Shown here in pieces: positions 8,324 to 61,266 of a stretch of 64,000 nt of DNA (positions within the stretch are counted from its first letter, which is position 1; each line of letters starts with the position of its first letter). The notes under the pieces were generated by a model. That model saw only the letters and a list, made by a program, of their open reading frames with translations, made no database searches and had not been told where the DNA came from. This DNA is from Thermoproteota archaeon (lineage in GTDB: Archaea; Korarchaeota; Korarchaeia; Korarchaeales; Korarchaeaceae): contig WALU01000035.1 of NCBI GenBank assembly GCA_015522685.1, positions 1-64,000 of the forward strand, in the 5' to 3' direction. Position numbers and translations under genes: made by a program.

Positions 8324-8725
8324 ATGGAATCATCATCCACTAAGAGAGGAGGTTCATTGAAGGAGCTAAGGAAGGCCAAAGAGCTGATAGATAGCGCTGC
8401 TCAGGATATAAGGAGGGGGGATTCTATAAGCTTCTTAGAATCCATTAAAAAATCAATGATCCTCTCGCTCAAGGCATGCCTCTCAAAACTGGGTATTCCT
8501 TCTCTCTCCGATTATAACAATGTGTTAAAGCTGTATCTTATGATTCCTCGTATATATAGACCTTATATAGGCGAGCCAGAGCTGGAGAATTTCGAGTTCA
8601 AGTACAATCTAATAATATCTAATGAAATGGGAGCCATTAATGTAGATGAGAGGTTTCTTGATGCAAGCCAAGAACTTGCTGAGAAGATATACTCCTGGGC
8701 TGAGGTCTTAATAGAAGAGTTATAA
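8324..8725 (+). CDS. HEPN-like helical domain protein (degenerate, no MNT partner seen)
   Basis: 'LRKAKELIDSA..DI.RGD......S...SLKA.L..LG' and C-terminal 'A.ELAEKIY.WA' pattern. Confidence 0.55.
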   Translation: MESSSTKRGGSLKELRKAKELIDSAAQDIRRGDSISFLESIKKSMILSLKACLSKLGIPSLSDYNNVLKLYLMIPRIYRPYIGEPELENFEFKYNLIISNEMGAINVDERFLDASQELAEKIYSWAEVLIEEL

Positions 8726-13314: not shown

Positions 13315-14589
13315 ATGGATTTTCCATTCTTTGGAGAGCTAAGAGATAACTGGAATCATGCATTGAAGGTTCTTAGAGCGAGGAGAAACTTACCTTTTGG
13401 GCAAGCTGAGGATATCATTAAGGAAGTAAAGGAGAGGGGATTAAAGGAGGTTTTGAGGCTTACGAAGAAATTCGATGGCATTTCTCTATCTCAAGATGAA
13501 ATATATTCGGAACCTGAGAATGGAGTGTTACCCTACTTCGTGGAAGAAGCGTTCAATAGACTTCTTTCTTGTGCAAAATCCTTGTTAAATAAATCGGAGT
13601 GCCATATAGGAGGGTTCTCAACTTCAATGGAATGGTTAAGGCGCTCTCCCTCGATGGGAAAACCCATCAGTAGAGTTGGGATATACGTTCCTGGTGGTAA
13701 CTATCCCCTCTTATCCTCACTTCTCATGGCCATAGCTCCTGGAATAGCTGCAGGGGCAAAAGAATTTGTAGTTGCAACTCCTCCTAGGAATTATAATGTA
13801 ATAGAGCATGCTTCAGCTAGGTTTGGAGCCAGAGAGTTCCTGAAAGTTGGGGGAGTGCAGGCAATTGCTTCTTTAGCTTATGGTTTGCCAGAGATAGGAC
13901 TTCGTCCAGTAGATATAATAGTAGGACCGGGGAATTCTTACGTTACAGCAGCGAAGCATATAGTATCTAGAGATATTAAGATCGATCTACTGGCTGGTCC
14001 TTCTGAAGTGCTCATATTATCGGACGGAAGCTTTCCAGTGGAGCTGATCGCTTTGGACATGCTTGCCCAAGCGGAACATGGACCTGATTCCATTGCTCTT
14101 ACCCTGACAACTTCACGTGAAGAGGCCATTGAGCTGAGATCTTATCTACTTAGATATCTTAATGTGGATAGATTTAGATCCCTCAGAAGCAGGAGTGGTA
14201 TCCTCTATGGGAAGAGCAAAGAGCTTGTTAAATTCAGCGATATCTTCATGCCCGAACATTTAGAGATCTTTGGTGATTTCCAAGCACGAATGGCTGGTGC
14301 CATATTTGAGAAGACAGGCGTTGTATTTGGTGATTATGGATATACCGGAGCTAATCATATCTTACCTACTGGAGGAACCCTACTGGAGAGACCCGGTTTG
14401 AGTCCATTCTCCTTTTTCAGGGGTTTTAGCGGTTCTTATTCTTATAGGCAAATGGGTAGTTTAAAATCTCAAGCTTCTGTATCTGAAATGACCGCTCATT
14501 TCGCTAGATTAGAGGGATTAGAGTATCACGCTAGAGCAGCTGAATCAAGGGAAAAACTTTATAAGGAGATCTCTGCTCAGGAAAGCTAA
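13315..14589 (+). CDS. hisD: Histidinol dehydrogenase
   Basis: GIYVPGG, GPGNSYV, AGPSE, QAEH, PEHL, GDYxxxGANHILPT, EGLEYHA. Confidence 0.9.
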   Translation: MDFPFFGELRDNWNHALKVLRARRNLPFGQAEDIIKEVKERGLKEVLRLTKKFDGISLSQDEIYSEPENGVLPYFVEEAFNRLLSCAKSLLNKSECHIGGFSTSMEWLRRSPSMGKPISRVGIYVPGGNYPLLSSLLMAIAPGIAAGAKEFVVATPPRNYNVIEHASARFGAREFLKVGGVQAIASLAYGLPEIGLRPVDIIVGPGNSYVTAAKHIVSRDIKIDLLAGPSEVLILSDGSFPVELIALDMLAQAEHGPDSIALTLTTSREEAIELRSYLLRYLNVDRFRSLRSRSGILYGKSKELVKFSDIFMPEHLEIFGDFQARMAGAIFEKTGVVFGDYGYTGANHILPTGGTLLERPGLSPFSFFRGFSGSYSYRQMGSLKSQASVSEMTAHFARLEGLEYHARAAESREKLYKEISAQES

Positions 14590-14590
14590 C

Positions 14591-14626
14591 GAGATGATAT
14601 GTATGGGGGATTTAGTTCACCTCTAG
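14591..14626 (+). promoter_or_regulatory. Leader mini-ORF MGDLVHL* (candidate His-sensing +1 frameshift site)
   Basis: SD-like GAGATGA 14591-97, 5-nt spacer, ATG GGG GAT TTA GTT CAC CTC TAG (14603-14626); +1 frame reads T-S-R-R-E-F-L-K into the binding-protein ORF; twin element at 21320-21355. Confidence 0.6.
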
Positions 14627-15743
14627 GAGAGAATTCCTTAAGATGGCAGTTGTAGGAACTGCCGGCCTTCTTGTCGGTGGATCTGCAGGCTATTTTTATA
14701 GATCCTCTGTTTCTCCCAGTAAGATAAAGCAAGAAGCTAGCGAAGCCAGTAAGGAGATTAAAGGAAAGGTTGCCATGTATGACTGGAGCAATAATAACAA
14801 TCCGTTCGTCTTTAAGTTATTCAAGGATAAGACTAGTGTAAATGTAGTGTACGACCTCTTTGATAGCGATGATGAGGCTTTCGCTAAATTAGAGGCAGGT
14901 GGTAGCGGATACGATGTAGTGGTTTTAACTGATAAATACGTTAGAAATGCGATAGAGAGGGGTTACGTTAGAAAACTCGATCAAAGCTCTATTCCAAACA
15001 TAAAGTACCTTGATCCTAAGTTTAGAGAATTAAAATATGACCCGGGAAATAAGTATTCTGTGCCATATGGATTTGGCAGTACTGCCATAGGATATAACTC
15101 AAAGAAAGTAAAGAATTTAACAAGTTGGAAGCAGTATTTCGATCCAAGCTACCTATCCAATTACAAGAAGAAAGTATCTATGCTCGAGGATCCACCTGAA
15201 GTGATGTTTGCTACCAAGCTCTATTTAGGTAAGAGTCTCGACGATTGGAGCGATTCTACTATGGGAGAAATTAAAGAAGCATTAATAAGGCAAAAGCCTT
15301 ACTTAGCGGGATATTTCAGTACGGATAAGTATATTCCCAATCTAGAGAATGGGTCTCTCATTGCATCCCACGCCTATAATGGCGACGTTTTAACAGCTAA
15401 ATATGGGGATGGATTCAAGGATCTGTCTTATCTAATACCAGAAGAGGGTGCTGTGGCGTGGATAGATAACATGCTCATCCCTAAGGATGCGTCTAACCCA
15501 GAAGCCGCTCAGGCTCTGATAAATTTCCTGATAGATCCTCTCGTTGCAGCATATAAAACGATCTCTGTTTACATTGCAATGCCAATACCAGCAACTAAGA
15601 AGCTATTACCACCAGAACTGGCCAGCGAGCCAGCTCTTATACCACCACCTGATCAGATGAAGAAGTTACATCTATCACCTGTGCTAACTGATAAGATCAG
15701 GGCAAAGATCAATGACGTATGGGAACAAGTCTTAGCAGCTTAG
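14603..15743 (+). CDS. PotD/PotF-family ABC substrate-binding protein with Tat signal; N-terminus needs a +1 frameshift (in-frame ORF 14643-15743)
   Basis: GGSGYDVVV, DPGNKYSVPY, PEEGAVAWIDNMLIPK motifs; SRREFLK is encoded upstream of the first in-frame ATG and bounded by in-frame TAG 14613-15. Confidence 0.85.
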
Positions 15744-15750
15744 GTGTGAA

Positions 15751-17034
15751 ATGTTGGTTTCAATACCAAGGGGATTCAGGGATTTCCCTCCCCCATTTAT
15801 GATACTTAGGAAGAGAGTAATGGAAAGGGTAGAGGAGATATTCAAGAGATATGGCTTTGATCCCTTCGATACTCCAATCTTAGAGTTATGGGAGACCGTG
15901 AAAGGTAAATTAGGAGAAGAAACTGAAAATAGGCTCATGTTCATATTTCCAGATTTTCTAAGCAAAGAATGGTATGCTCTCAGATATGAATTAACATTCC
16001 CTCTCGCTAGGTATATAGCTATGCACCCTGAGACTCCTCTGCCCTTTAAGAGATATCATATAGGGAGGGTATGGAGGCATGAAGAGCCCCAGAAAGGAAG
16101 GTATAGAGAGTTCTGGCAATGTGATGCAGATATAGTGGGCAGTCCTTGTCCAGAAGCTGATGCTGAGATAGTCAAGCTAAATATTGAAGTAATGAGAACT
16201 TTTGGTTTCAGAAGATATGTAGTGAAGATCAATGACCGGAGACTCCTGACAGGAATCTTTGAGGAAGAGCTTGGTATAGCAAAACCAGCTCCTGTATATA
16301 GATCTATTGATAAACTGGATAAAATTGGAGAAGCTGGAGTGAGAGCTGAATTACTCGCTAAGGGAATGAATAGTCACCTAGTCGATAAAATAATCAATTT
16401 AACTAGGATTAGAGGTAGGTTCGAGGAAGTCTACGAGGATTTGAGAGATATTAGCAATGAAAAGGTGAAGACCGCTTTAGACCATCTTGGGAGCATATTC
16501 GGCATAATTGAGGATGATAAACTAATCTTTGATCTATCCCTTGTCAGAGGTCTAGAGTATTATACAGGACCTGTCTTCGAAACAATTGTGAAGGAACCTA
16601 AGATAGGTTCTCTAGCTGGAGGTGGGAGATATGATAAGCTGATAGGTCTCTACTCCGGGAAAGATGTACCGGCCACAGGCGCCAGCATCGGTATAGAGAG
16701 ATTAATAGACGCCGGTCTGGAGCTTGGCATATTATCCCTTAGAGATAAGAGCTACATTCAAGTATTTGTAGTGAGTGTGAAGAGAGATTCCTGGAGATAT
16801 GCGTGGAAGGTAGCGGAGTTTTTAAGAAAGGAGGGATTCTATGTTTCCTTAGATCTTATGAGGAGAAGTCAATCAAATCAGAGAGAGTATGCAAGGAAAC
16901 TTGGAGCCAAGGTGATCGTCTTCGTTGGACCGAAGGAAAAAGATAAGAGGAGCGTTACCATATATTCAAATGGAATCAGGAGAACAGTTAGCCTTGAGAA
17001 TGCAGCTAGGACTATCAATGAGGTCATCTCTTGA
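15751..17034 (+). CDS. hisS: Histidine--tRNA ligase
   Basis: PRGFRD, LRYELT, RHEEPQKGRYREFWQCDAD, LVRGLEYYTG, GGGRYD, GIERL. Confidence 0.95.
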   Translation: MLVSIPRGFRDFPPPFMILRKRVMERVEEIFKRYGFDPFDTPILELWETVKGKLGEETENRLMFIFPDFLSKEWYALRYELTFPLARYIAMHPETPLPFKRYHIGRVWRHEEPQKGRYREFWQCDADIVGSPCPEADAEIVKLNIEVMRTFGFRRYVVKINDRRLLTGIFEEELGIAKPAPVYRSIDKLDKIGEAGVRAELLAKGMNSHLVDKIINLTRIRGRFEEVYEDLRDISNEKVKTALDHLGSIFGIIEDDKLIFDLSLVRGLEYYTGPVFETIVKEPKIGSLAGGGRYDKLIGLYSGKDVPATGASIGIERLIDAGLELGILSLRDKSYIQVFVVSVKRDSWRYAWKVAEFLRKEGFYVSLDLMRRSQSNQREYARKLGAKVIVFVGPKEKDKRSVTIYSNGIRRTVSLENAARTINEVIS

Positions 17035-17671
17035 TCTTTATCCTATAATTTGTTTTCAAATAGGATATATCATCTAGAAGCTTCCATATTTCATCCAAAA
17101 AGCTAGGAAGCATATAGAGAGGGATTATTGGTATACCGTGAAGGATCCTATCGCTGAAATCAAGCCATGTAACTATCGCTGGGATTATTAGACTCTCTCC
17201 TTCTTCTATTTCTATGCCTTTTATATCTTCTATTTTGAAGGCACCAGATAGTGATTTAGTTCTCTCTAATTGTTTTACAGCTGCCTTCTTAAGCTTATAT
17301 ATCTTAGAAGAAGATCCCTTAGACCACATCTTGCAATCCACTGATAAAATTAGTTCACCTAAAGCTCCGAGTATATCTATCTCATATCTCCTCTGATTAA
17401 AAGAGAATTTAACTCCCTTTATAGCATCTACTCCAGACATCTGGAAGCCCTTTAGGCAGAAATCCTCGAATCTCTTCCAGTCTAAGAGCGCTGCAGCTCT
17501 CTCAGGAGAAATGCCTATCTTAATCAATGCAATAGCTACTGCTACAGGATTATCAGCTGGATTTCCTCCCCCTTCCCTTCTTAGATATGAAAGAAGATCC
17601 TCAGGAATAGATTTCCAATTCTCACTAACCATCTCATGGAGACTTTTCTCAGCTATCCTCTTAAGGTCCAC
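17024..17671 (-). CDS. PD-(D/E)xK restriction-endonuclease-fold protein (Mrr/NERD-like)
   Basis: LDWKRFEDF...EIDIL.....VDCKMW...QLER. Confidence 0.7.
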   Translation of the reverse strand: MDLKRIAEKSLHEMVSENWKSIPEDLLSYLRREGGGNPADNPVAVAIALIKIGISPERAAALLDWKRFEDFCLKGFQMSGVDAIKGVKFSFNQRRYEIDILGALGELILSVDCKMWSKGSSSKIYKLKKAAVKQLERTKSLSGAFKIEDIKGIEIEEGESLIIPAIVTWLDFSDRILHGIPIIPLYMLPSFLDEIWKLLDDISYLKTNYRIKIKR

Positions 17672-17746
17672 CTTCTATACTATTCAAGAAAGAAAGAGTG
17701 ATATATACATTTGCCTTCTTCTATCAGTTAGAGAAGGTTGACTTAA

Positions 17747-19033
17747 TTGGGACTCACATTAGCTGAGAAAATCTTGAGTATGAGAATGGGAAAGAAAGTA
17801 AGAGCCGGAGACGTTGTCATTAGCCCTGTAGATTATGCAGCAGCCCAAGATGGAACGGGCCCTCTAACTATAAGAGTAATGGAGGAGCAGCTAGGCGTAA
17901 AATCTGTTTTTGAGCCAGGTAGAGTTATATTCTTCTTAGATCATGCTGCTCCGGCTCCCAGAAAGGAGCTAGCTAATGATCATAAGTTCATCAAGCAGTT
18001 TGGTAAGGAGGTAGGTTGCATAGTTTCAAGGGAGGGGGAAGGTATAATTCATCAAAGACTTGTGGAGGACTTCGTTTCCCCCGGAGATATAATAGTTGGG
18101 GCTGATTCTCATACATGTACCTCAGGTGCTTTAGCAGCATTCGCCACAGGCATGGGATCAACGGATATAGCAGTAGCTATGGCTTATGGCAAGACTTGGT
18201 TTAGGGTTCCAGAGACCATAAGGATCGAGGCTAGTGGAGAACTTCCATTTGGGGTATTTCCAAAGGATCTCATGCTTTACATAATCGGCAAGCTCACCGC
18301 TGAAGGCGCAACATATAAGGCTCTAGAATTTCAAGGAGAAACCATAAGAAATCTAACTCAGGAATCGAGATTTACTTTATCTAACATGGCAGTCGAAGCA
18401 GGAGCTAAGGTGGGCTTAATAGAGAGTGATGACGCGACTAGAAGATATCTGAAGGAAATGGGAAGAGAAGGTAAATATAAGGAGATAAAGGCTGATGAAG
18501 GAGCTAGTTATGAGAGCATTATGTATATAGATTCCGAAGATCTAGTTCCCTCTTTAGCTGCACCTCATTTTGTAGATAATTATAGGACAATAGATCAGCT
18601 GGAAGGTCTGAAAGTGGATCAAGTCTTTATCGGGACATGTACAAATGGAAGATTTGAGGATTTACTGGTTGCAGCTACAATCCTAAAGGGTAAGAAAGTC
18701 GATCCTAATGTGAAATTTATAGTAGGACCTGCATCGAGGAAAGTGCTAGAGAAAGCCGTTAAGGAGAGCCTGATCGATATATCTATCAAAGCAGGAGCTG
18801 TGATTATTCCTCCAGGATGCGGTCCATGCGCAGGCGTACATGCTGGAGTGCCATCGGATGGAGAAGTTGTAGTTTCCACACAAAATAGGAACTTCAGAGG
18901 AAGAATGGGTAATCCTAACTCTGAGATATATTTAGCAAGCCCTGCTACGGCAGCAGCCACAGCAATAAAGGGAGAAATTGCTGACCCTAGAGAATTCCTC
19001 CCAGAGGATTTTAAGGTCAAGATAGTAAGCTAA
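17747..19033 (+). CDS. leuC: 3-isopropylmalate dehydratase / homoaconitase large subunit
   Basis: TLAEKIL, DH, GADSHT, GTCTNGR, CGPCAG, STQNRNFRGRMG, LASP; LeuC vs HacA specificity not resolvable by eye. Confidence 0.85.
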   Translation: MGLTLAEKILSMRMGKKVRAGDVVISPVDYAAAQDGTGPLTIRVMEEQLGVKSVFEPGRVIFFLDHAAPAPRKELANDHKFIKQFGKEVGCIVSREGEGIIHQRLVEDFVSPGDIIVGADSHTCTSGALAAFATGMGSTDIAVAMAYGKTWFRVPETIRIEASGELPFGVFPKDLMLYIIGKLTAEGATYKALEFQGETIRNLTQESRFTLSNMAVEAGAKVGLIESDDATRRYLKEMGREGKYKEIKADEGASYESIMYIDSEDLVPSLAAPHFVDNYRTIDQLEGLKVDQVFIGTCTNGRFEDLLVAATILKGKKVDPNVKFIVGPASRKVLEKAVKESLIDISIKAGAVIIPPGCGPCAGVHAGVPSDGEVVVSTQNRNFRGRMGNPNSEIYLASPATAAATAIKGEIADPREFLPEDFKVKIVS

Positions 19034-19049
19034 TGAAGGAAGCGTTATT

Positions 19050-19547
19050 ATGAAGATAAAAGGTAGAGCTTGGAAGTTTGGAGACGGGGTGAGCACAGAT
19101 GATATCGCCCCCGGTAGATACTTCTACCTGAGAAGTCAACCAAAAGAGCTAGCCAAGCATGCATTTGAGGACTTGAGGCCAGACTTCGCCAAGAACGCGA
19201 AACCAGGAGATATAGTTGTAGGAGGAAGGAATTTTGGACAAGGATCTAGCAGAGAACATGCTCCTCTGATAATAAAGCTTAATGGAGTTGGAGCCATAAT
19301 AGCTAAGAGCGTGGCTAGGATCTTCTTCAGGAATGCGATAAATTTAGGGCTACCTATGATAATAGTTGACACAGATAGGATCAATGATTGCGATGAGATA
19401 GAGATCGATTTGAAGGAAGGTATAGTAGAGGATTTAACTAAAAAATTCAAGCTCGAAGCTAAGCCGTTGCCAGAGGCTATGCTGAAGATTCTTAGAGATG
19501 GGGGATTAGTACCCCATGTAAAGAAACACGGTAGCTTTACTTTGTAG
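19050..19547 (+). CDS. leuD: 3-isopropylmalate dehydratase / homoaconitase small subunit
   Basis: STDDIAPGRY, NFGQGSSREHAP, ARIFFRNAINLGLP. Confidence 0.85.
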   Translation: MKIKGRAWKFGDGVSTDDIAPGRYFYLRSQPKELAKHAFEDLRPDFAKNAKPGDIVVGGRNFGQGSSREHAPLIIKLNGVGAIIAKSVARIFFRNAINLGLPMIIVDTDRINDCDEIEIDLKEGIVEDLTKKFKLEAKPLPEAMLKILRDGGLVPHVKKHGSFTL

Positions 19548-19950
19548 GTGAGAGTTTACTCTTCCTCATTTTCTTTTAGCACTAAAGGTGAGATAGTTTT
19601 GTAGATTATAACAGAGAGAGCTAATGAGATAGTTAGGGAAGTTGGAATAAAGGGAGGCTTAGCTCTGCTATCTGCTCCTCATGCAACCGGAGCTATTATA
19701 CTGAATGAAAATGATCCATCTTTGTTGGAGAATCTGAAGACCTTACTAGAGAAAATTATATCCCAGGAAATGGTTATAAGCATCCATTCAATGCACATTC
19801 TCACCTAAGATCTATCCTCATGGAATCAAGTAATGTTACCCTAGTAAATAATGGAAGACTAAGTCTGGGCGTATGGTGAAGCATAATATGGTGGAAGTTG
19901 ACACTCGCCCTAGGGAAAGAACAGTGCTCATCACCATTGTTGGGGAGTAG
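19548..19950 (+). pseudogene. yjbQ: YjbQ/UPF0047 family pseudogene
   Basis: Hand translation gives APHATGAIILNENDPSLL, YKHPFNAHSHLRSIL, GRLSLGVW*, EVDTRPRERTVLITIVGE*; two internal stops and two frameshifts. Confidence 0.85.
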
Positions 19951-21236
19951 ATGGTTCCTCAACATAGAGAGCAAATAGTCGCAGGCTGAAAAGCCCTATG
20001 ATTGCGCTCACCAGAAATGAAATTGCAGCCCCTGGGAGTGTAATTCCAATTAATAGGATCTTCTTAGGGGCATACTGTTGATATAGCTGACCACCAACTA
20101 TTGGGCCCAGTACTGCGCCGATATTAAAGATAGCTTGTACCGTCCCAAATACCTTTCCTCTAATTTCTCTAGGAGAGATATCGGCCTGTAGTGCTCTGAA
20201 AGATGGGATATACATTAAAAGCTATAGATCTAAGTGTAGAGAGAAATGTAAGACCCCAGGTCTCTTGCTACTGGGATAACTGCTGTCATCAATCTTGCAA
20301 AAGCGCCTGAATTTATCACGATACCTTTTCTACTGATCTTATCGCTCAATCTTCCACCAGGATAAGCAGCAGCCAAGCCTATTATCCCTGATATTGTAGT
20401 AACTATTGCTATAGCAGATGGATCTGATGATATAAATTGCATTATATAGAGACTCGTATCGGAGCTATAAATCCCATAGCAAATCCATTGGCTAGTCCCA
20501 TGATATATAACGTGTTTATACTTCTCCTAATTGACTTTGATAACTCTATCTTAACTAGAGATTCTTTCTTCCTCTTCAGTGCTTTATCGCGATTCTCTCT
20601 CAGTAGAAAGGAGGATATTATTGATATGGCAAACATGACAGCAAGGCCAAGGAAGGGGAACTTAAGGGCCCATTATAGGTCCTTTATGCCGAGTGTGTAT
20701 ATTCCAAACTTGTACAAAGCAACCCCAATGGCCGGACCTCCTATCATAGCTAAGTTAGATGATGTCATGTAGATAGCCATGGATTGCCCTCTCATCTTAC
20801 TTGGCACGCTATCCATGAGCAGAGCTTCAGCTACTGGCCATATCATAGCAGATGCGACAACCTGTAATCCTCTTATCAAGTATAGATGGTATGCGCTGGA
20901 GGATAAGAGATAAGCATGGGCCAGAACCGAGTATATAACCAAACCGAGTATTATCAGTTTCTTTCGACCCAATCTATCACTTAGCGATCCAAAATATCTA
21001 GCAAGCATGGCTCGAGTTAGCATAAAAGCAGACATCATGAGTCCATACTCTAAAGCATATTGAGAGGCCTGTTTTATGACTCCAAGCTCTTCTGGAAGCT
21101 CGCTAATTCCACCTTCAAGATAGACCACGTAGTATGGAAGTATTGGCGATATAGCTCCAAAACCAAGTGATATGACGAATCCAATTATTGGGAGTACTAT
21201 GACGTTCTTCTTTTCCATTAAGATACCTCTTAACAC
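19931..21236 (-). pseudogene. MFS transporter pseudogene (four fragments)
   Basis: ORFs 20673-21236, 20442-20636, 20230-20442 and 19931-20215 together form one MFS: GSLSDRLGRKK, GRLSDKISRK, REIRGKVFG. Confidence 0.85.
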
Positions 21237-21319
21237 CCCGAAGGGGCTTTCTCATCTATGCAGGAAATTTCGTATACTATTATTTTTAACTATATGAGCG
21301 TCGCTAACTATAACCTTCT

Positions 21320-21455
21320 GAGGTGAATGATATGGGGGATTTAGTTTGGCTTTAAGCCTTTTGATCTAGTTTTGCTACCTTCTGAAAAGAATAATGTGAT
21401 CCTAAAGCTTCCGTTGGAGGGGTTGGAGGTTCTCTTTGAGGGTGATTCTTCATGA
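21320..21455 (+). promoter_or_regulatory. Leader mini-ORF MGDLVWL* plus +1-frame linker ORF coupled to trpB2 (candidate Trp-sensing switch)
   Basis: SD GAGGTGA 21320-26, 5-nt spacer, ATG GGG GAT TTA GTT TGG CTT TAA (21332-21355); +1 frame open 21348-21455, ending in TGA that overlaps the trpB2 ATG. Confidence 0.6.
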
Positions 21456-22738
21456 TAAGGATAGATTTATCTCGAGAGGAGATTCCGAGTTATTGGTATA
21501 ACATCGTATCAGATTTGCCTGATCTTCCACCACCAATTCATCCAGCTACTAAGAAGCCTTTAGGACCGAGAGATTTTTATCCCATATTCACAAAGGAATG
21601 CGTTGACCAAGAGTTTTCCAAGGAGAGATACATAAAAATACCTGATGAGCTTAGAGAACTCTACATTAGGATAGGAAGGCCTACTCCTCTATATAGGGCT
21701 AAGAGACTTGAGAAATATCTTAAAACACCAGCTAAAATTTATTATAAGAGGGAAGATGTAACACCGACTGGTAGCCATAAGCTAAATACCGCGATTGTTC
21801 AAGCTTTCTGCGCTGCTAGGGAAGGCTTGGAGTATTTGACAACGGAGACCGGTGCCGGTCAATGGGGAAGTGCTTTATCCTATGCTACTGCTATGATGGG
21901 GATAAAAGCCATTGTGTTCATGGTGAGGATATCTTATCTACAAAAACCTTATAGAAAGCTAGTGATGAAGCTTTATGGAGCAGATATATTTCCTTCTCCC
22001 AGCGATAAGACCGAAATTGGGAAGAAGTACCTAGAAAAAGATCCAAATCATCCTGGTTCACTTGGAATAGCTATAAGCGAAGCTATAGATATGGCTAAAA
22101 ATAGTGATAAAGCTAGATACTCATTAGGGAGCGTACTCAATCATGTACTGCTCCATCAGACAATAATAGGCCAGGAGGTGAAGAAGCAATTTGAACTAAT
22201 CGGTGAGAAGCCTGATATCCTCATAGGTTGCTTTGGCGGGGGAAGCAATTTCTCCGGTTTCACATTTCCATTCATCGAGGAAATCTTGAAGGGAAAGGAG
22301 AAGTATGATGTTATTGCAGTTGAGCCTACGGCAGCTCCATCAATGACCAATGGGGAGTATAGGTATGACTTTGGTGATAGTGCTGGTATAACTCCTTTAA
22401 TAAAGATGTTCACTTTAGGACATGATTTCATTCCGCCACCAATCCATGCAGGTGGGCTTAGATATCATGGAGCTGCTCCTACAGTCAGCCTACTGAAATC
22501 TAAGGGGATAGTTAGATCAGTCACCTATGCCCAAGAGGAGACTTTTGAGGCTGGTAGAATTTTCGCAATGACCGAAGGTATAATACCAGCTCCTGAGACA
22601 ACTTATGCCGTTAAGGCAGCTATGGATGAAGCATTAAAGGCAAGAGAGAATAGAGAAGAAAAAGTAATAGCATTCAACTTTTCTGGTCATGGTTTACTTG
22701 ATCTTAAGGGATATGAGGATGTATTGAAGATCTCCTGA
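21452..22738 (+). CDS. trpB2: TrpB2 (stand-alone tryptophan synthase beta-like PLP enzyme)
   Basis: [46 protein letters not shown]; no trpA nearby. Confidence 0.93.
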
Positions 22739-31841: not shown

Positions 31842-32549
31842 TTGCTTCCGCTTAAAGATGAGAACCCTAGTCCTATAACTCCATGGGTTAACTATATACT
31901 TATACTCACTAATACTCTAATTTTTCTTTTAGAAGTACTCAGTGGACCAGAAGGTTTTCAGCAAATAATAATGAATTACGGCTTCATATCATCCTTAGTC
32001 ATGGAGAATCCTTCTTCTAATCTATACAGAATGCTTACATCAATGTTTCTCCACGGTGGGTGGCTTCATCTTCTTGGTAATATGTTATATCTCTACATAT
32101 TTGGAGATAATGTAGAAGCTGCCTTTGGCCATGTTAAGTACCTTTTCTTCTACCTCATCTCAGGTACAGCTGCAAATCTTATGCACATGTTCATCCTTCC
32201 AATATTCGGCATACCCACTAACATTCCAGCCATAGGTGCGTCCGGAGCCATAAGTGGGGTTTTAGGAGCTTACTTCATATTCTATCCTAGAGCTAGGATC
32301 CTGACCGCTTTAATGATATGGTACTTCATAACAGTTGAACCGATACCTGCTAAATATTACATACTATTTTGGTTCTTCTGGCAGCTAATACCGGGATTAT
32401 TGGCAGGAGAATCAACTGGTATCGCATACTGGGCTCATATTGGAGGGTTCATAGCAGGTCTAATAATAGCGTATCCTTATAGGCATAAGGTACGTTATCT
32501 TAGGAGGCTCTGGATGATGGGAGATTATTACCATGGAAACATGTGGTAG
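31842..32549 (+). CDS. Rhomboid intramembrane serine protease
   Basis: SMFLHGGWLHLLGNM, GASGA, AYWAHIGGF. Confidence 0.92.
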   Translation: MLPLKDENPSPITPWVNYILILTNTLIFLLEVLSGPEGFQQIIMNYGFISSLVMENPSSNLYRMLTSMFLHGGWLHLLGNMLYLYIFGDNVEAAFGHVKYLFFYLISGTAANLMHMFILPIFGIPTNIPAIGASGAISGVLGAYFIFYPRARILTALMIWYFITVEPIPAKYYILFWFFWQLIPGLLAGESTGIAYWAHIGGFIAGLIIAYPYRHKVRYLRRLWMMGDYYHGNMW

Positions 32550-34565: not shown

Positions 34566-35290
34566 ATGAAGATGCTTAACTACCAACATACTCAGCATGG
34601 ATGAAGTATTTAATAGCAGGATACCTTAGAGAAATGCTATTTTGCTTTCAGGAGGACCTGAAACAGGTAAGACTATATTTAAATTGTAATTTCTCCATTC
34701 TTTAATCAATTGAAGCGAAAATTTGGTCTATATAGCCCTAGAAGAGCACTCAATTCAAGCTAGGATAAACATGTCTGCCTTTAGTTGAGATCCCAAGCCT
34801 TATGATAAGCAGAGCAAGTCAGCATTATAGATACTATACCGGGGGATAGGAGGAGCTGCTAAGAGAGAAGTACATGGCAACAGATCCAGGAGATACTTAT
34901 AGCTTAATTAATGAAATAAAAGATATGATGGATGATATAAATATCATCAAGTTGCCAATGGACCCTGTCACTATACCCCTAATGAGGACAGTAGTAGCTA
35001 TGAAAACTGTTTTACTTCTGAAGAAGGGTCTCTCAGGAACTGGAACCACTTCAATTCTTATAAGCCAAGTGGAAGTTGTAAATAGAAGGTTTGGGAGAGC
35101 TCGAGGTAAAAGTATGTCATAGGCGGTACTATAAGGCTAGATATTGACGAGCAGGATGTGAACTTGCCAGAAGCTTAATAATTTAGATAATGGAGGGAAC
35201 TGCGCACTCAATAAGAAGGCATCCCTTTGAAATTACGAATAATGGAATAGTAGTGTACTCGGATAAGGTAGTTAAAAGGAGGGAGCATTA
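34566..35290 (+). pseudogene. KaiC-domain ATPase (PH0284-like) pseudogene
   Basis: Hand translation: [85 protein letters not shown]; several stops and frameshifts; end approximate. Confidence 0.85.
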
Positions 35291-37136: not shown

Positions 37137-37245
37137 GCCGGGGTAGCTCAGCATGGTTAGAGCATCGGACTCATAAGCGAGTCAGGGGCTCACGGTGCTC
37201 TGCTGGGAAATCCGGGGGTCCCGGGTTCAAATCCCGGCCCCGGCA
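37137..37245 (+). tRNA. tRNA-Met(CAU), elongator, with 34-nt intron at 37/38 (37176-37209)
   Basis: GCCGGGG/CCCCGGC acceptor; TCGGA-CT-CAT-A[intron]A-TCCGG; bulge-helix-bulge CTCA/TGGG with TAA and AAA bulges. Confidence 0.92.
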
Positions 37246-37874: not shown

Positions 37875-37948
37875 TGGGGCCGCCGGGATTTGAACCCGGG
37901 ACCTCCGGCTCCCAAGACCGGCATCCTACCAAGCTAGACCACGGCCCC
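37875..37948 (-). tRNA. tRNA-Pro(UGG)
   Basis: Reverse complement GGGGCCGTGGTCTAGCTTGGTAGGATGCCGGTCTTGGGAGCCGGAGGTCCCGGGTTCAAATCCCGGCGGCCCCA. Confidence 0.95.
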
Positions 37949-60941: not shown

Positions 60942-61266
60942 GGTAATGCCCAAATTAGTTGAGGCCATTATGGAAGCTGAGAATGAGGCTACTAAAATAA
61001 CCCTGGAAGCTGAGGAGGAAGCTAAGAGAATAATTGAGGAAGCTGAGGAGGAAGCTAAGAGAATAATTGAGGAAGCTAAAAATTCTCCTGTAGAAGCGAA
61101 GCTTCCTAAGAACATAGATAGGGAGGCTCAGGAGATAGTAGAAAGAGCGAAGATGAAAGTGGAGGAATTAAGGGAGAACGCGATGAAGAAAATGAATTTT
61201 CTTGCCAACGAAATAGTTAGAGAGGTGTTGGAAGGTGAGTGGGGAGGAAGTAGTCGACATAGATAA
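60934..61266 (+). CDS. atpH: A/V-type ATP synthase subunit H (G-like peripheral stalk)
   Basis: EAE.EA..I..EA hendecad coiled coil; operon position. Confidence 0.7.
   Translation: MGEVMPKLVEAIMEAENEATKITLEAEEEAKRIIEEAEEEAKRIIEEAKNSPVEAKLPKNIDREAQEIVERAKMKVEELRENAMKKMNFLANEIVREVLEGEWGGSSRHR
61005..61077 (+). repeat. Perfect 33-bp tandem duplication inside atpH
   Basis: GGAAGCTGAGGAGGAAGCTAAGAGAATAATTGA at 61005-61037 and 61038-61070, plus partial GGAAGCT. Confidence 0.95.

Follow-up and report, generated by a model that had tools for sequence, protein, structure and literature searches.

Organization of the two leader sites

The window analysed here is the whole stretch of 64,000 nucleotides (nt) from a Thermoproteota archaeon of the Korarchaeaceae (GenBank assembly GCA_015522685.1, contig WALU01000035.1, positions 1 to 64,000 of the forward strand), and this work concerns two very small open reading frames (ORFs) within it, the His leader and the Trp leader, which encode MGDLVHL and MGDLVWL and precede the gene of a solute-binding protein and the trpB2 gene, respectively. 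Comparison with related genomes suggests that both belong to a family of leaders at which slow decoding of one sensor codon probably triggers a programmed +1 ribosomal frameshift. A preliminary description of this DNA had reported two Shine-Dalgarno (SD) sequences with their spacers, codons and stops, and its reading of both sites agrees exactly with the sequence. The features of the two sites, all on the plus strand, are the following.

13315-14589, plus strand: hisD (histidinol dehydrogenase; Pfam Histidinol_dh, 6e-77), 5' neighbour of the His leader
14558-14564, plus strand: TATA-like box of the His-leader transcript, TTTATAA, within hisD at its 3' end and 39 nt 5' of the leader ATG; invariant in 10/10 sequences (alignment A1)
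14591-14597, plus strand: SD of the His leader, GAGATGA; relatives have GGGGTGA, GGAGGTG or GAGGTGA, and an SD-like sequence lies 5-6 nt 5' of the ATG in 10/10
14603-14626, plus strand: His leader ORF MGDLVHL*, ATG GGG GAT TTA GTT CAC CTC TAG, with an SD spacer of 5 nt
14615-14620, plus strand: proposed shift site of the His leader, GTT (P site) and CAC (A site, sensor)
14616-15743, plus strand: +1-frame ORF of the binding protein, 375 codons, opening right after the TAG at 14613-14615
14643-15743, plus strand: solute-binding protein ORF as called, the first gene 3' of the His leader
15751-17034, plus strand: hisS (histidyl-tRNA synthetase; Pfam tRNA-synt_His), starting 7 nt past the binding-protein stop codon
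21283-21289, plus strand: TATA-like box TTTTTAA of the Trp-leader transcript; T8, T9, A12 and A13 are invariant in 20 aligned genus leaders (alignment A5)
21320-21326, plus strand: SD of the Trp leader, GAGGTGA; GGAGGTG, GGGGGTG or GAGGTGA in 20/20 genus leaders
21332-21355, plus strand: Trp leader ORF MGDLVWL*, ATG GGG GAT TTA GTT TGG CTT TAA, with an SD spacer of 5 nt
21344-21349, plus strand: proposed shift site of the Trp leader, GTT (P site) and TGG (A site, sensor), with a +1-frame TAG at 21342-21344
21345-21455, plus strand: +1-frame bridging ORF, 36 codons (21345-21452) followed by a TGA at 21453-21455 that overlaps the trpB2 ATG (ATGA)
21438-21445, plus strand: SD of trpB2 itself, GAGGGTGA; GGAGGTG-like sequences are conserved 5' of trpB2
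21452-22738, plus strand: trpB2 (TrpB-like pyridoxal-phosphate enzyme; NCBIfam NF009057, 681.7 bits against a cut-off of 366; Pfam PALP)

The two leaders have identical codons 1-5, Leu at codon 7 and a stop at codon 8, and the exact 16-mer common to both sites starts at 14602 and 21331. The Trp leader lies 97 nt from trpB2. TATA-like boxes are generally known as promoter elements in archaea, and both boxes presumably act as promoters here.

The His leader and the start of the binding protein

After the TAG at 14613-14615, the +1 frame reads F-T-S-R-R-E-F-L-K-M-A-V-V-G-T-A-G-L-L-V-G-G, so that the twin-arginine motif S-R-R-E-F-L-K of the binding protein occupies 14622-14642, upstream of the start as called. 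This motif corresponds to the twin-arginine consensus S/T-R-R-x-F-L-K, and the N-terminus has the properties of a signal for twin-arginine translocation (Tat), namely TSRREFLK followed by the hydrophobic stretch MAVVGTAGLLVGGSAG; TatC is encoded in the genome (158 bits, above cut-off). In the frame of the binding protein, the segment 14616-14642 contains no ATG, GTG or TTG. The same 375-codon open frame is present in eight orthologues of the genus and in nine records of related uncultured archaea, labelled just as Thermoproteota or Crenarchaeota archaeon. At 14643, the 10 sequences have ATG (two), TTG (four), TTA (three) or CTG (one), so that this position behaves as a Leu/Met site inside an ORF, not as a start codon. 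The His leader appears to be the sole start of the binding protein, and the predicted frameshift product begins MGDLV-TSRREFLKMAVVG....

A shift would have to happen within 14616-14623, bounded by the TAG of the +1 frame (14613-14615) on one side and by the stop of frame 0 (14624-14626) on the other. Paralogues in these genomes, which carry the motif after an ordinary ATG, and homologues of 42% identity elsewhere need one frame only and begin with M-TSRREFLK, MQRREFLK, MVNGSRRDFLK or MAKLSRRDFLK, and a slip at GTT followed by decoding of ACC would yield MGDLV-TSRREFLK, that is, the paralogue N-terminus with MGDLV replacing M. We infer the placement of the shift at GTT|CAC from the motif of NUU plus sensor codon, which is common to all leader types.

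Conservation at this site bears on both frames. The 24 bases ATGGGGGATTTAGTTCACCTCTAG are invariant in the alignment of 10/10 orthologous regions, in which both flanks vary, and the leader 15-mer adjoins the binding-protein gene in 11 of the 21 genomes of the genus. Changes 3' of the His leader are silent or conservative in the +1 frame, for instance AGG AGA against AGA AGG or AGG AGG, and likewise CTT/CTC, GAA/GAT and CTC/ATC. In the paralogues, T-S-R is spelled ACG AGY CGA, in contrast to the invariant ACC TCT AG of the leader-bearing gene; since ACC TCT AG is fixed, as frame 0 (CAC CTC TAG) requires, selection acts on both frames where they overlap.

In 9/9 relatives the arrangement is likewise hisD, leader, binding protein, hisS. 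The SD of hisS (AGGTG) overlaps the stop codon of the binding protein, and therefore hisS is probably co-transcribed with it. The binding protein matches Pfam SBP_bac_8 (7.7e-27, above cut-off), it is related to the polyamine binders PotF, PotD and SpuD, with the polyamine-binding protein 3ttl as its best match in the PDB (1e-51), and it scores 179 bits in NCBIfam PotF against a cut-off of 636; it thus falls outside the PotF/PotD equivalogs and is best regarded, from these similarities, as a relative of the PotF/PotD polyamine binders.

As a separate observation, an 8-bp hairpin followed by a T-rich run lies at 14644-14664, in the region coding for the signal peptide and about 25 nt past the proposed shift site. 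Its GGCAG...CTGCC is kept in most relatives (alignment A1), which may be due to chance or to a 3' element.

The Trp leader and trpB2 within the genus

The 15-mer of the Trp leader is present in all 21 genomes of the genus, and the trpB2 locus was compared in 20 of them, with G032 left out. Codon 7 of the Trp leader is CTT, CTC, CTA, CTG or CCT, mostly synonymous changes, and TAA, TAG and TGA all serve as its stop, in an unchanging position except in G003, where the leader has two codons more. A stop that keeps its place and changes its identity, together with a mostly synonymous codon 7, indicates that frame 0 is under selection.

The spacer between leader and trpB2 comprises 30-48 codons, and the peptides encoded in it cannot be aligned among the 20 genus leaders. 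After GTT, the +1 frame is open in 20/20 leaders and reaches a TGA on the trpB2 start, always 1 or 4 nt beyond the start codon's first base; 12 junctions read ATGA, and the other 8 read GTGCTGA or ATGCTGA. The other two frames of the same stretch contain 1-6 stops each; the count of zero in the +1 frame is so by construction, and what can fairly be said is that the trpB2 start is where the first +1 stop falls. When shuffled, the short spacers are open in 0.10-0.35 of trials each.

Trp leaders in other genera

The phylum is represented in the collection by 43 genomes of ten genera, three of which carry the exact motif. In genus g12 (5/5 genomes) and in G021, the leader is (A/G)TG GGG GAT CTA GTT TGG, followed by 2-3 codons and a stop, and the +1 frame runs for 151-164 codons through a ParB-fold protein. 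This ORF resembles the N-terminal part of the serine kinase SerK and of SbnI (2e-19, below cut-off), is below cut-off for Pfam ParB_N and, covering the N-terminal ParB-like part only, reaches 59-70 bits against a cut-off of 380 for SerK (ADP-dependent serine kinase), so that it stays outside that family; we call it SerK-like. It has no SD-preceded start of its own (loci L073-L077, L038, L120, L121 and L123), and in g12 and G021 it ends in a TGA overlapping the trpB2 start (ATGA or GTGA).

Diverged leaders lie 5' of trpB2 in three more genera: MGGLLWFSP* (G038), MNVGDLVWLL* (G046), MGDHLWPP* (G040) and MGDLVWLL* (G042). The last is spelled ATG GGT GAC CTA GTT TGG, so that the peptide MGDLVW is kept through synonymous changes. 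In these four genomes the +1 frame runs through the SerK-like ORF to the trpB2 start region; in G040 it is open for 135 codons and stops 15 nt 5' of the trpB2 ATG.

Taken together, 30 trpB2 leaders from six genera could be evaluated (20 of the genus, one of G021, five of g12, and those of G038, G040, G042 and G046; a second G035 copy, at a contig end, is outside this set). In 30/30, no stop interrupts the +1 frame between the shift codon and the trpB2 start region, and the stop of this frame lies on the trpB2 start (ATGA, GTGA or TTGA) or 4 nt into it in 29/30 and 15 nt upstream in 1/30, across spacers of 30-164 codons that differ in sequence. NTT TGG is the sole element common to the Trp leaders of the six genera. 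In the genus of the window, the SerK-like gene appears to have been lost, with the open bridging frame alone left. TrpB2 enzymes use phosphoserine, a property that would explain a SerK-like partner.

Cysteine and TrpE members of the family

A scan of the window's own genome, outside the window, found a third type of leader on contig C9 (minus strand, leader ATG at plus-strand position 35102, locus L125), namely ATG GGT GAC TAT CTT TGC TGA, or MGDYLC*. Its +1 frame encodes cysteinyl-tRNA synthetase (CysRS; Pfam tRNA-synt_1e, 2e-111). In 17 genomes of the genus, that of the window among them, the 5' end of cysS could be recovered, and ATG GGT GAY NNN CTT TGC TGA occurs in 17/17, behind a conserved GGTG and a TATA box; codon 3 varies silently and codon 4 is free. 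The sequence CTTTGCTGA is invariant in 17/17 of these leaders amid neighbouring third positions that vary, a pattern to be expected only of a stretch that is read in both frames. In the four other genera of the family, twelve cysS genes start in frame in the ordinary way.

The motif ATGGGKGAYNNNSTT has 17 matches in five complete or near-complete genomes of the genus, against 6 for a reversed-pattern control: four trpB2 leaders, one His leader, five cysS leaders, six sites inside longer ORFs and one new leader. The latter, in G015 (L279, contig C1, leader at 387470, minus strand), reads MGDRVWLY*, and its +1 frame encodes anthranilate synthase component I (TrpE; Anth_synt_I_N plus Chorismate_bind), an ORF without an SD and start of its own. 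The sensor codon thus specifies Trp at trpB2 and trpE, Cys at cysS, and His at the binding protein linked to hisD and hisS. Two expectations of the preliminary description were borne out by these data: that of a codon-swappable module, through the Cys version before cysS and the second Trp version before trpE, and that of a motif conserved in related genomes with a sensor codon matching its target, through W at trpB2 and trpE and C at cysS.

The repeat is not evidence by itself

The repeat that first drew attention to the two sites is unremarkable when taken alone. The window contains 52 repeated 16-mers, forming about 14 separate pairs, compared with a mean of 2.5 in 20 mononucleotide shuffles, and with up to two mismatches the leader 15-mer has at least two matches in 5 of 100 shuffles. 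In the whole assembly (1.48 Mb, 92% complete), just these two copies of the 15-mer exist at one mismatch or less. The earlier caveat about chance repeats of 16 bases was therefore correct; the repeat by itself is not significant, and since it is unremarkable, other genomes decide the question and the case rests on conservation in them.

On the possibility of indel errors, which had also been raised, an independently built contig of run X1 covers 14181-14683 gap-free and clears site 1 of an indel; the contig comes from the one DNA run compared, probably of the source sample, and no listed piece covers site 2. The same layout is present in the assemblies of 20 other species, however, and an indel error is thereby excluded. 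That the arrangement should stem from a chance repeat, decayed genes or an assembly error would accord with the abundance of repeated exact 16-mers in the window and with a neighbouring transporter gene in pieces; yet the arrangement recurs in independently assembled genomes (21/21 for Trp, 11/21 for His, 17/17 for Cys), and the leaders bear signs of dual-frame selection. These comparative data already refute such an origin, and we give it practically no credence.

Other exact repeats of 16-18 bases in the window lie at 19614-19645, 29870 and 61343, at 37217-37239 with 37882-37904, and at 61005-61065; they include one inverted pair and one short tandem array.

A proposed starvation-responsive +1 frameshift

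All members of the family have a common core, consisting of a leader of 6-10 codons that begins M-G-(D/G)-x, a codon NUU (GUU or CUU) and one sensor codon X (UGG, CAC or UGC), and all possess a strong SD and a TATA-like box from whose position the leader would come first among the ORFs of the mRNA. A G-rich, SD-like stretch GGGGGAT, GGGTGAC or GGGTGGT always lies 4-5 nt 5' of the shift codon, even where codons change, and is a candidate for the internal SD suggested in the preliminary description; as it also encodes Gly-Asp, its conservation may reflect selection on the RNA or on the peptide. The shift codon and its following base are CUU U in 17/17 cysS leaders and in G038 and G040, and GUU U or GUU C in both window leaders and most trpB2 leaders. 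Between X and the leader stop there are 0-4 codons; since the sequence past X varies in length and content, the event would be sited at NUU|X rather than at the leader stop. The combination of a short zero-frame ORF with a startless +1 ORF is seen for the binding protein and the SerK-like ORFs, and in part only for cysS and the G015 trpE, in which a +1-frame GTG exists. The earlier claim that the useful frame is +1 finds strong support in the comparison, given a binding protein startless in its own frame and a +1 frame open to trpB2 in 30/30. As regards a shift at GUU with His or Trp in the A site, the motif of NUU plus sensor codon and the paralogue N-terminus M-TSRREFLK fit the earlier proposal, which stays an interpretation.

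We therefore propose, as the probable explanation, a programmed +1 ribosomal frameshift triggered by slow decoding of the sensor codon. The comparison establishes the anatomy of the leaders, their conservation and a simultaneous selection on two frames; from these we infer that the shift occurs, that its site is NUU|X and that it responds to tRNA charging. When the cognate aminoacyl-tRNA is plentiful, the ribosome would read X and stop within 0-4 codons. When it is scarce, the ribosome would wait with NUU in the P site and the A site empty, X being then a 'hungry codon' in Gallant's sense, a sense codon awaiting a scarce aminoacyl-tRNA. The waiting peptidyl-tRNA would slip +1 onto UUU or UUC, a move in which the G-rich SD-like stretch 4-5 nt 5' of NUU perhaps assists, and translation would go on in the +1 frame. 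The +1 product would be the protein itself in the case of the Tat-signal PotF-like protein, CysRS, TrpE or the SerK-like protein; at trpB2 of the genus, frameshifted ribosomes would cross the bridging ORF and be delivered to the trpB2 start, through termination-reinitiation or through unfolding of the spacer. With somewhat less assurance, we also lean towards viewing the family as a portable archaeal sensor of tRNA charging, a cassette of about 20 nt made of SD, AUG, G-rich codons, NUU and one sensor codon, which would subject the translation of whatever gene it precedes to the scarcity of a single aminoacyl-tRNA.

Several observations weigh against this proposal. The trpB2 gene retains a strong SD of its own. 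The binding protein resembles a polyamine binder and its tie to histidine is positional only; moreover, CAC overlaps the Thr codon ACC, so that just NAC (four codons) is possible and His would arise by chance in 1/4 of cases. Five genomes without the binding protein have an ordinary hisS start and lack the leader (0/5), from which it follows that the His leader travels with the binding protein, not with hisS. The preliminary description had taken the His codon as cognate to its target; the position linked to hisD and hisS speaks for this, and the link is weaker than was thought, given the NAC constraint and the PotF-like target. Re-pairing of tRNA-Val from GUU to UUY leaves a mismatch at the first position, which re-pairing from CUU to UUU does not. 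There is a single sensor codon, in contrast to the runs usual in bacterial leaders. The cysS leaders carry a +1-frame GTG 4 nt after the ATG, a possible direct start, and the leaders lacking the +1 TAG (cysS, G040, G038 and the G015 trpE) all carry such a possible +1-frame GTG start. G042 keeps the peptide through silent changes, and the peptide, the RNA or both may matter. A helix sequestering the trpB2 SD is backed, modestly, in a 7-species subclade only. Finally, the evidence is comparative.

Among other explanations, the +1 shift might take place at a fixed ratio, or respond to polyamines or to a free amino acid sensed through the nascent MGDLV-X, in the manner of antizyme or of arrest peptides of the TnaC type. 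MGDLV-X resembles the MAGDIS peptide encoded by an upstream ORF (uORF), the target of the His leader is PotF/PotD-like, and the MGD(L)(V)W kept by G042 hints at a peptide role. Polyamines are also known to stimulate the +1 shifts of prfB and antizyme (PMC5009743). This explanation is nonetheless unlikely: the sensor codon varies cognately (W at trpB2 and trpE, C at cysS), peptide position 4 is free (Y, H, G, R or L), and induction by high Trp would be senseless for genes of Trp synthesis. A comparably low probability, if anything a trifle lower, attaches to the absence of any frameshift, the leaders being ordinary regulatory or decoy uORFs and the main ORFs starting independently, at the +1 GTG (cysS, trpE, SerK-like), from the SD of trpB2 or at an unusual start codon of the binding protein. 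In E. coli, starts that overlap in two frames have been described (PMC9841429), a +1 GTG lies 4-10 nt after the leader ATG in cysS, the G015 trpE, G038 and G040, and the trpB2 SD is strong; a dual start may apply to these four leader types. Against independent starts, on the other hand, stands the TAG that closes the +1 frame immediately ahead of the shift codon, seen in the His leader and in 28/30 trpB2 leaders, and so does the lack of an SD-preceded start past this TAG in the 10 His sequences and in the SerK-like ORFs of g12, G042 and G046. The sole candidate start of the binding protein is TTA in three sequences and CTG in one, with the twin-arginine motif upstream of it, and the 30/30 open +1 frames up to the trpB2 start region would go unexplained.

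A classical ribosome-mediated attenuator, in which the position of the ribosome on the leader picks an RNA fold (termination or SD access) with no change of frame, would fit the 5'-terminal position in the mRNA of a leader that carries one cognate codon for W, H or C. Seven species forming one subclade also have a 13-bp helix between a CU-rich spacer element and the trpB2 SD, 91% paired and with four pairs changed on both sides, a count that 5 of 500 shuffles reach. However, 21200-21520 contains no terminator-like site, sequestration of the SD is not a general feature (z between -2.1 and +1.6), a structure would find no space where the leader overlaps coding sequence (binding protein, cysS), and the open +1 frames are again unexplained, so that we hold this possibility to be very improbable. 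Folding the sequences singly at 70 °C revealed no fold in common, shuffled spacers did as well as the real ones in the energy of their duplex with the trpB2 SD, the consensus of a second subgroup had no compensatory pairs, and Rfam had no family match in 14000-22000.

Relation to known frameshifting and leader systems

The closest counterpart of the proposed starvation-dependent shift is bacterial prfB, in which CUU_U slips +1 at a slow A-site UGA, helped by a GG_GGG internal SD (PMC5009743). The leaders resemble it in the short zero-frame ORF with the product in +1, the slow A site as the presumed sensor, the G-rich SD-like stretch a few bases 5' of the shift codon and, in cysS (CUU UGC) and in G038 and G040 (CUU UGG), a CUU_U-type P site. 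Unlike in prfB, the A site holds a sense codon (UGG, CAC or UGC) in place of UGA, so that charged tRNA and not a release factor would be sensed; the targets are trpB2, the binding protein, cysS and trpE, not RF2, and the cassette precedes unrelated genes; most leaders have GUU, with weaker re-pairing; the SD-like stretch is 4-5 nt away, not 3; and the host is an archaeon. Since the A-site codon and the genes differ, the element would work like prfB without being a member of it.

The trpL, hisL, pheL and pheST leaders are bacterial attenuators with cognate codons. The archaeal leaders have in common with them a leader with a cognate codon and the expectation that low charged tRNA leads to more expression. 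They differ in having one codon, in the lack of any terminator or antiterminator found (21200-21520) and in the output, which would be a frame change with fusion or coupling; as there is no terminator and the leader overlaps coding sequence, they do not appear to be transcription attenuators. By analogy, the family would work like a cross between prfB and an attenuator.

Other systems have single aspects in common with it. In ermC, a telithromycin-induced leader frameshift lets ribosomes enter the spacer and unfold it, which turns the downstream gene on (PMC5009743), and the bridging ORF of trpB2 has the layout for shifted leader ribosomes to translate likewise into the spacer; the trigger there is a drug and the effect an unfolding, whereas the +1 ORF of our leaders runs up to the start codon itself, an arrangement that suggests termination-reinitiation. 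Translation is reported to be coupled by overlapping stop and start codons in archaea and bacteria (PMC6728339). In antizyme, a +1 shift at the stop of a short ORF1 responds to polyamines (PMC5009743); there too the frameshift is sensor and effector of a metabolite circuit, and one of our targets resembles a polyamine binder, but in our leaders the conserved element ends at a sense codon and the codons before the stop vary from 0 to 4. Among archaea, a -1 frameshift on A-AAA-AAT in the middle of fucA1 of Saccharolobus solfataricus was presented in 2021 as the sole demonstrated case, and the same source treats archaeal +1 cases, in a halovirus and in Mg-chelatase, as suggested only (PMC8211752). 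Like fucA1, the present genes would be cellular archaeal genes expressed by programmed frameshifting, which is here a proposal from comparative analysis; unlike it, the shift would be +1, at the 5' end and in several genes, fucA1 being without a known sensor role. Downstream genes of mycobacterial polycysteine leaderless uORFs respond to cysteine (10.1101/834739), in that case through Cys runs and attenuation, with no frame change and in bacteria.

With respect to hungry-codon frameshifting that yields starvation-specific trans-frame proteins, a 2016 review states that 'no examples are known' (PMC5009743). A 2013 survey of frame transitions covered one Korarchaeota genome, and its text mentions neither tryptophan nor histidine (PMC3711429). 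The full-text literature searched, which leaves most subscription journals outside, contained no description of such leaders and none of archaeal leader-peptide or T-box-like control, in keeping with the statement of the preliminary description that it knew of no archaeal example.

How archaea sense the shortage of a single amino acid at the level of translation is largely unknown so far. If the proposed frameshift is true, the leaders would be an archaeal functional counterpart of bacterial attenuators and T-boxes, and the first natural case of starvation-triggered frameshifting with useful trans-frame products, in Trp, His and Cys versions. Gene callers will mis-start or truncate such genes, as regards the Tat signal of the binding protein, the N-terminus of CysRS and, in relatives, the genes for TrpE and the SerK-like protein. 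Synthetic biology could also make use of so small a switch with exchangeable codons.

Genome context and minor candidates

In the 92%-complete genome, HisG was not found, His_biosynth is represented by one 29.8-bit fragment at a contig end, and for TrpA and indole-3-glycerol phosphate synthase (IGPS) there was nothing above cut-offs. The upper parts of the His and Trp pathways thus appear to be missing, hisD and trpB2 look like last-step salvage enzymes, and the organism may be auxotrophic for His and Trp, with none but these two enzymes retained. The HisG, TrpA and IGPS results uphold the earlier view of the targets as salvage genes. A tRNA scan gave an ordinary set with no odd anticodon loops, including tRNA-Val with GAC, UAC and CAC; tRNA-Trp was not found with the scan options used, possibly on account of an intron or of the incomplete assembly.

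Divergent from the Trp leader, a gene for a transporter of the major facilitator superfamily (MFS; window positions 19801-21236, minus strand) is split into at least three pieces (20673-21236, 20230-20442 and 19931-20215) and is probably a decayed gene.

Scans for further members returned several candidates that were set aside. The 15-mer matches with one mismatch in G012, G017, G013, G010 and G015 are all inside longer ORFs and are attributed to chance. MGDNLAGA* at C5:31406 is most simply an ordinary gene, with the SD GGGTGAT and a TTG start in +1, and the leader candidate at C17:7109 is inside an ORF. A general relaxed scan of the window genome, with 61 matches, was too unspecific. Scanning metagenomes with the 15-mer gave at least 117 matches, mostly from unrelated organisms, without an SD and with a random codon 6, and these do not amount to a census.

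Some isolated sites are recorded as minor observations. At 32514-32549 of the window, MMGDYYHGNMW* has a strong SD and overlaps the start of a 208-codon ORF with its own ATG, and is probably a chance occurrence, as is probably the ATG GGG GAC GCC GTT CAC (MGDAVH...) of L277 (G012:C1:533631), inside a 74-codon ORF and without an SD. On contig C38 (minus strand, ATG at plus-strand 30107, L126), MMGDLLGSKS* lies between two CBS-domain ORFs that are in one frame and a single TGA apart; from the sequence, a TTG start with the SD GGGGGA explains this arrangement equally well. The metagenome contig L166 (minus strand, 8673-8687, GC content 52%) carries SD-MGDLVC* (GTT TGC TAG) followed in +1 by a 78-residue ORF with no early ATG, which by eye only looks like a small winged-helix regulator, and L166 is a possible member of the family in another organism.

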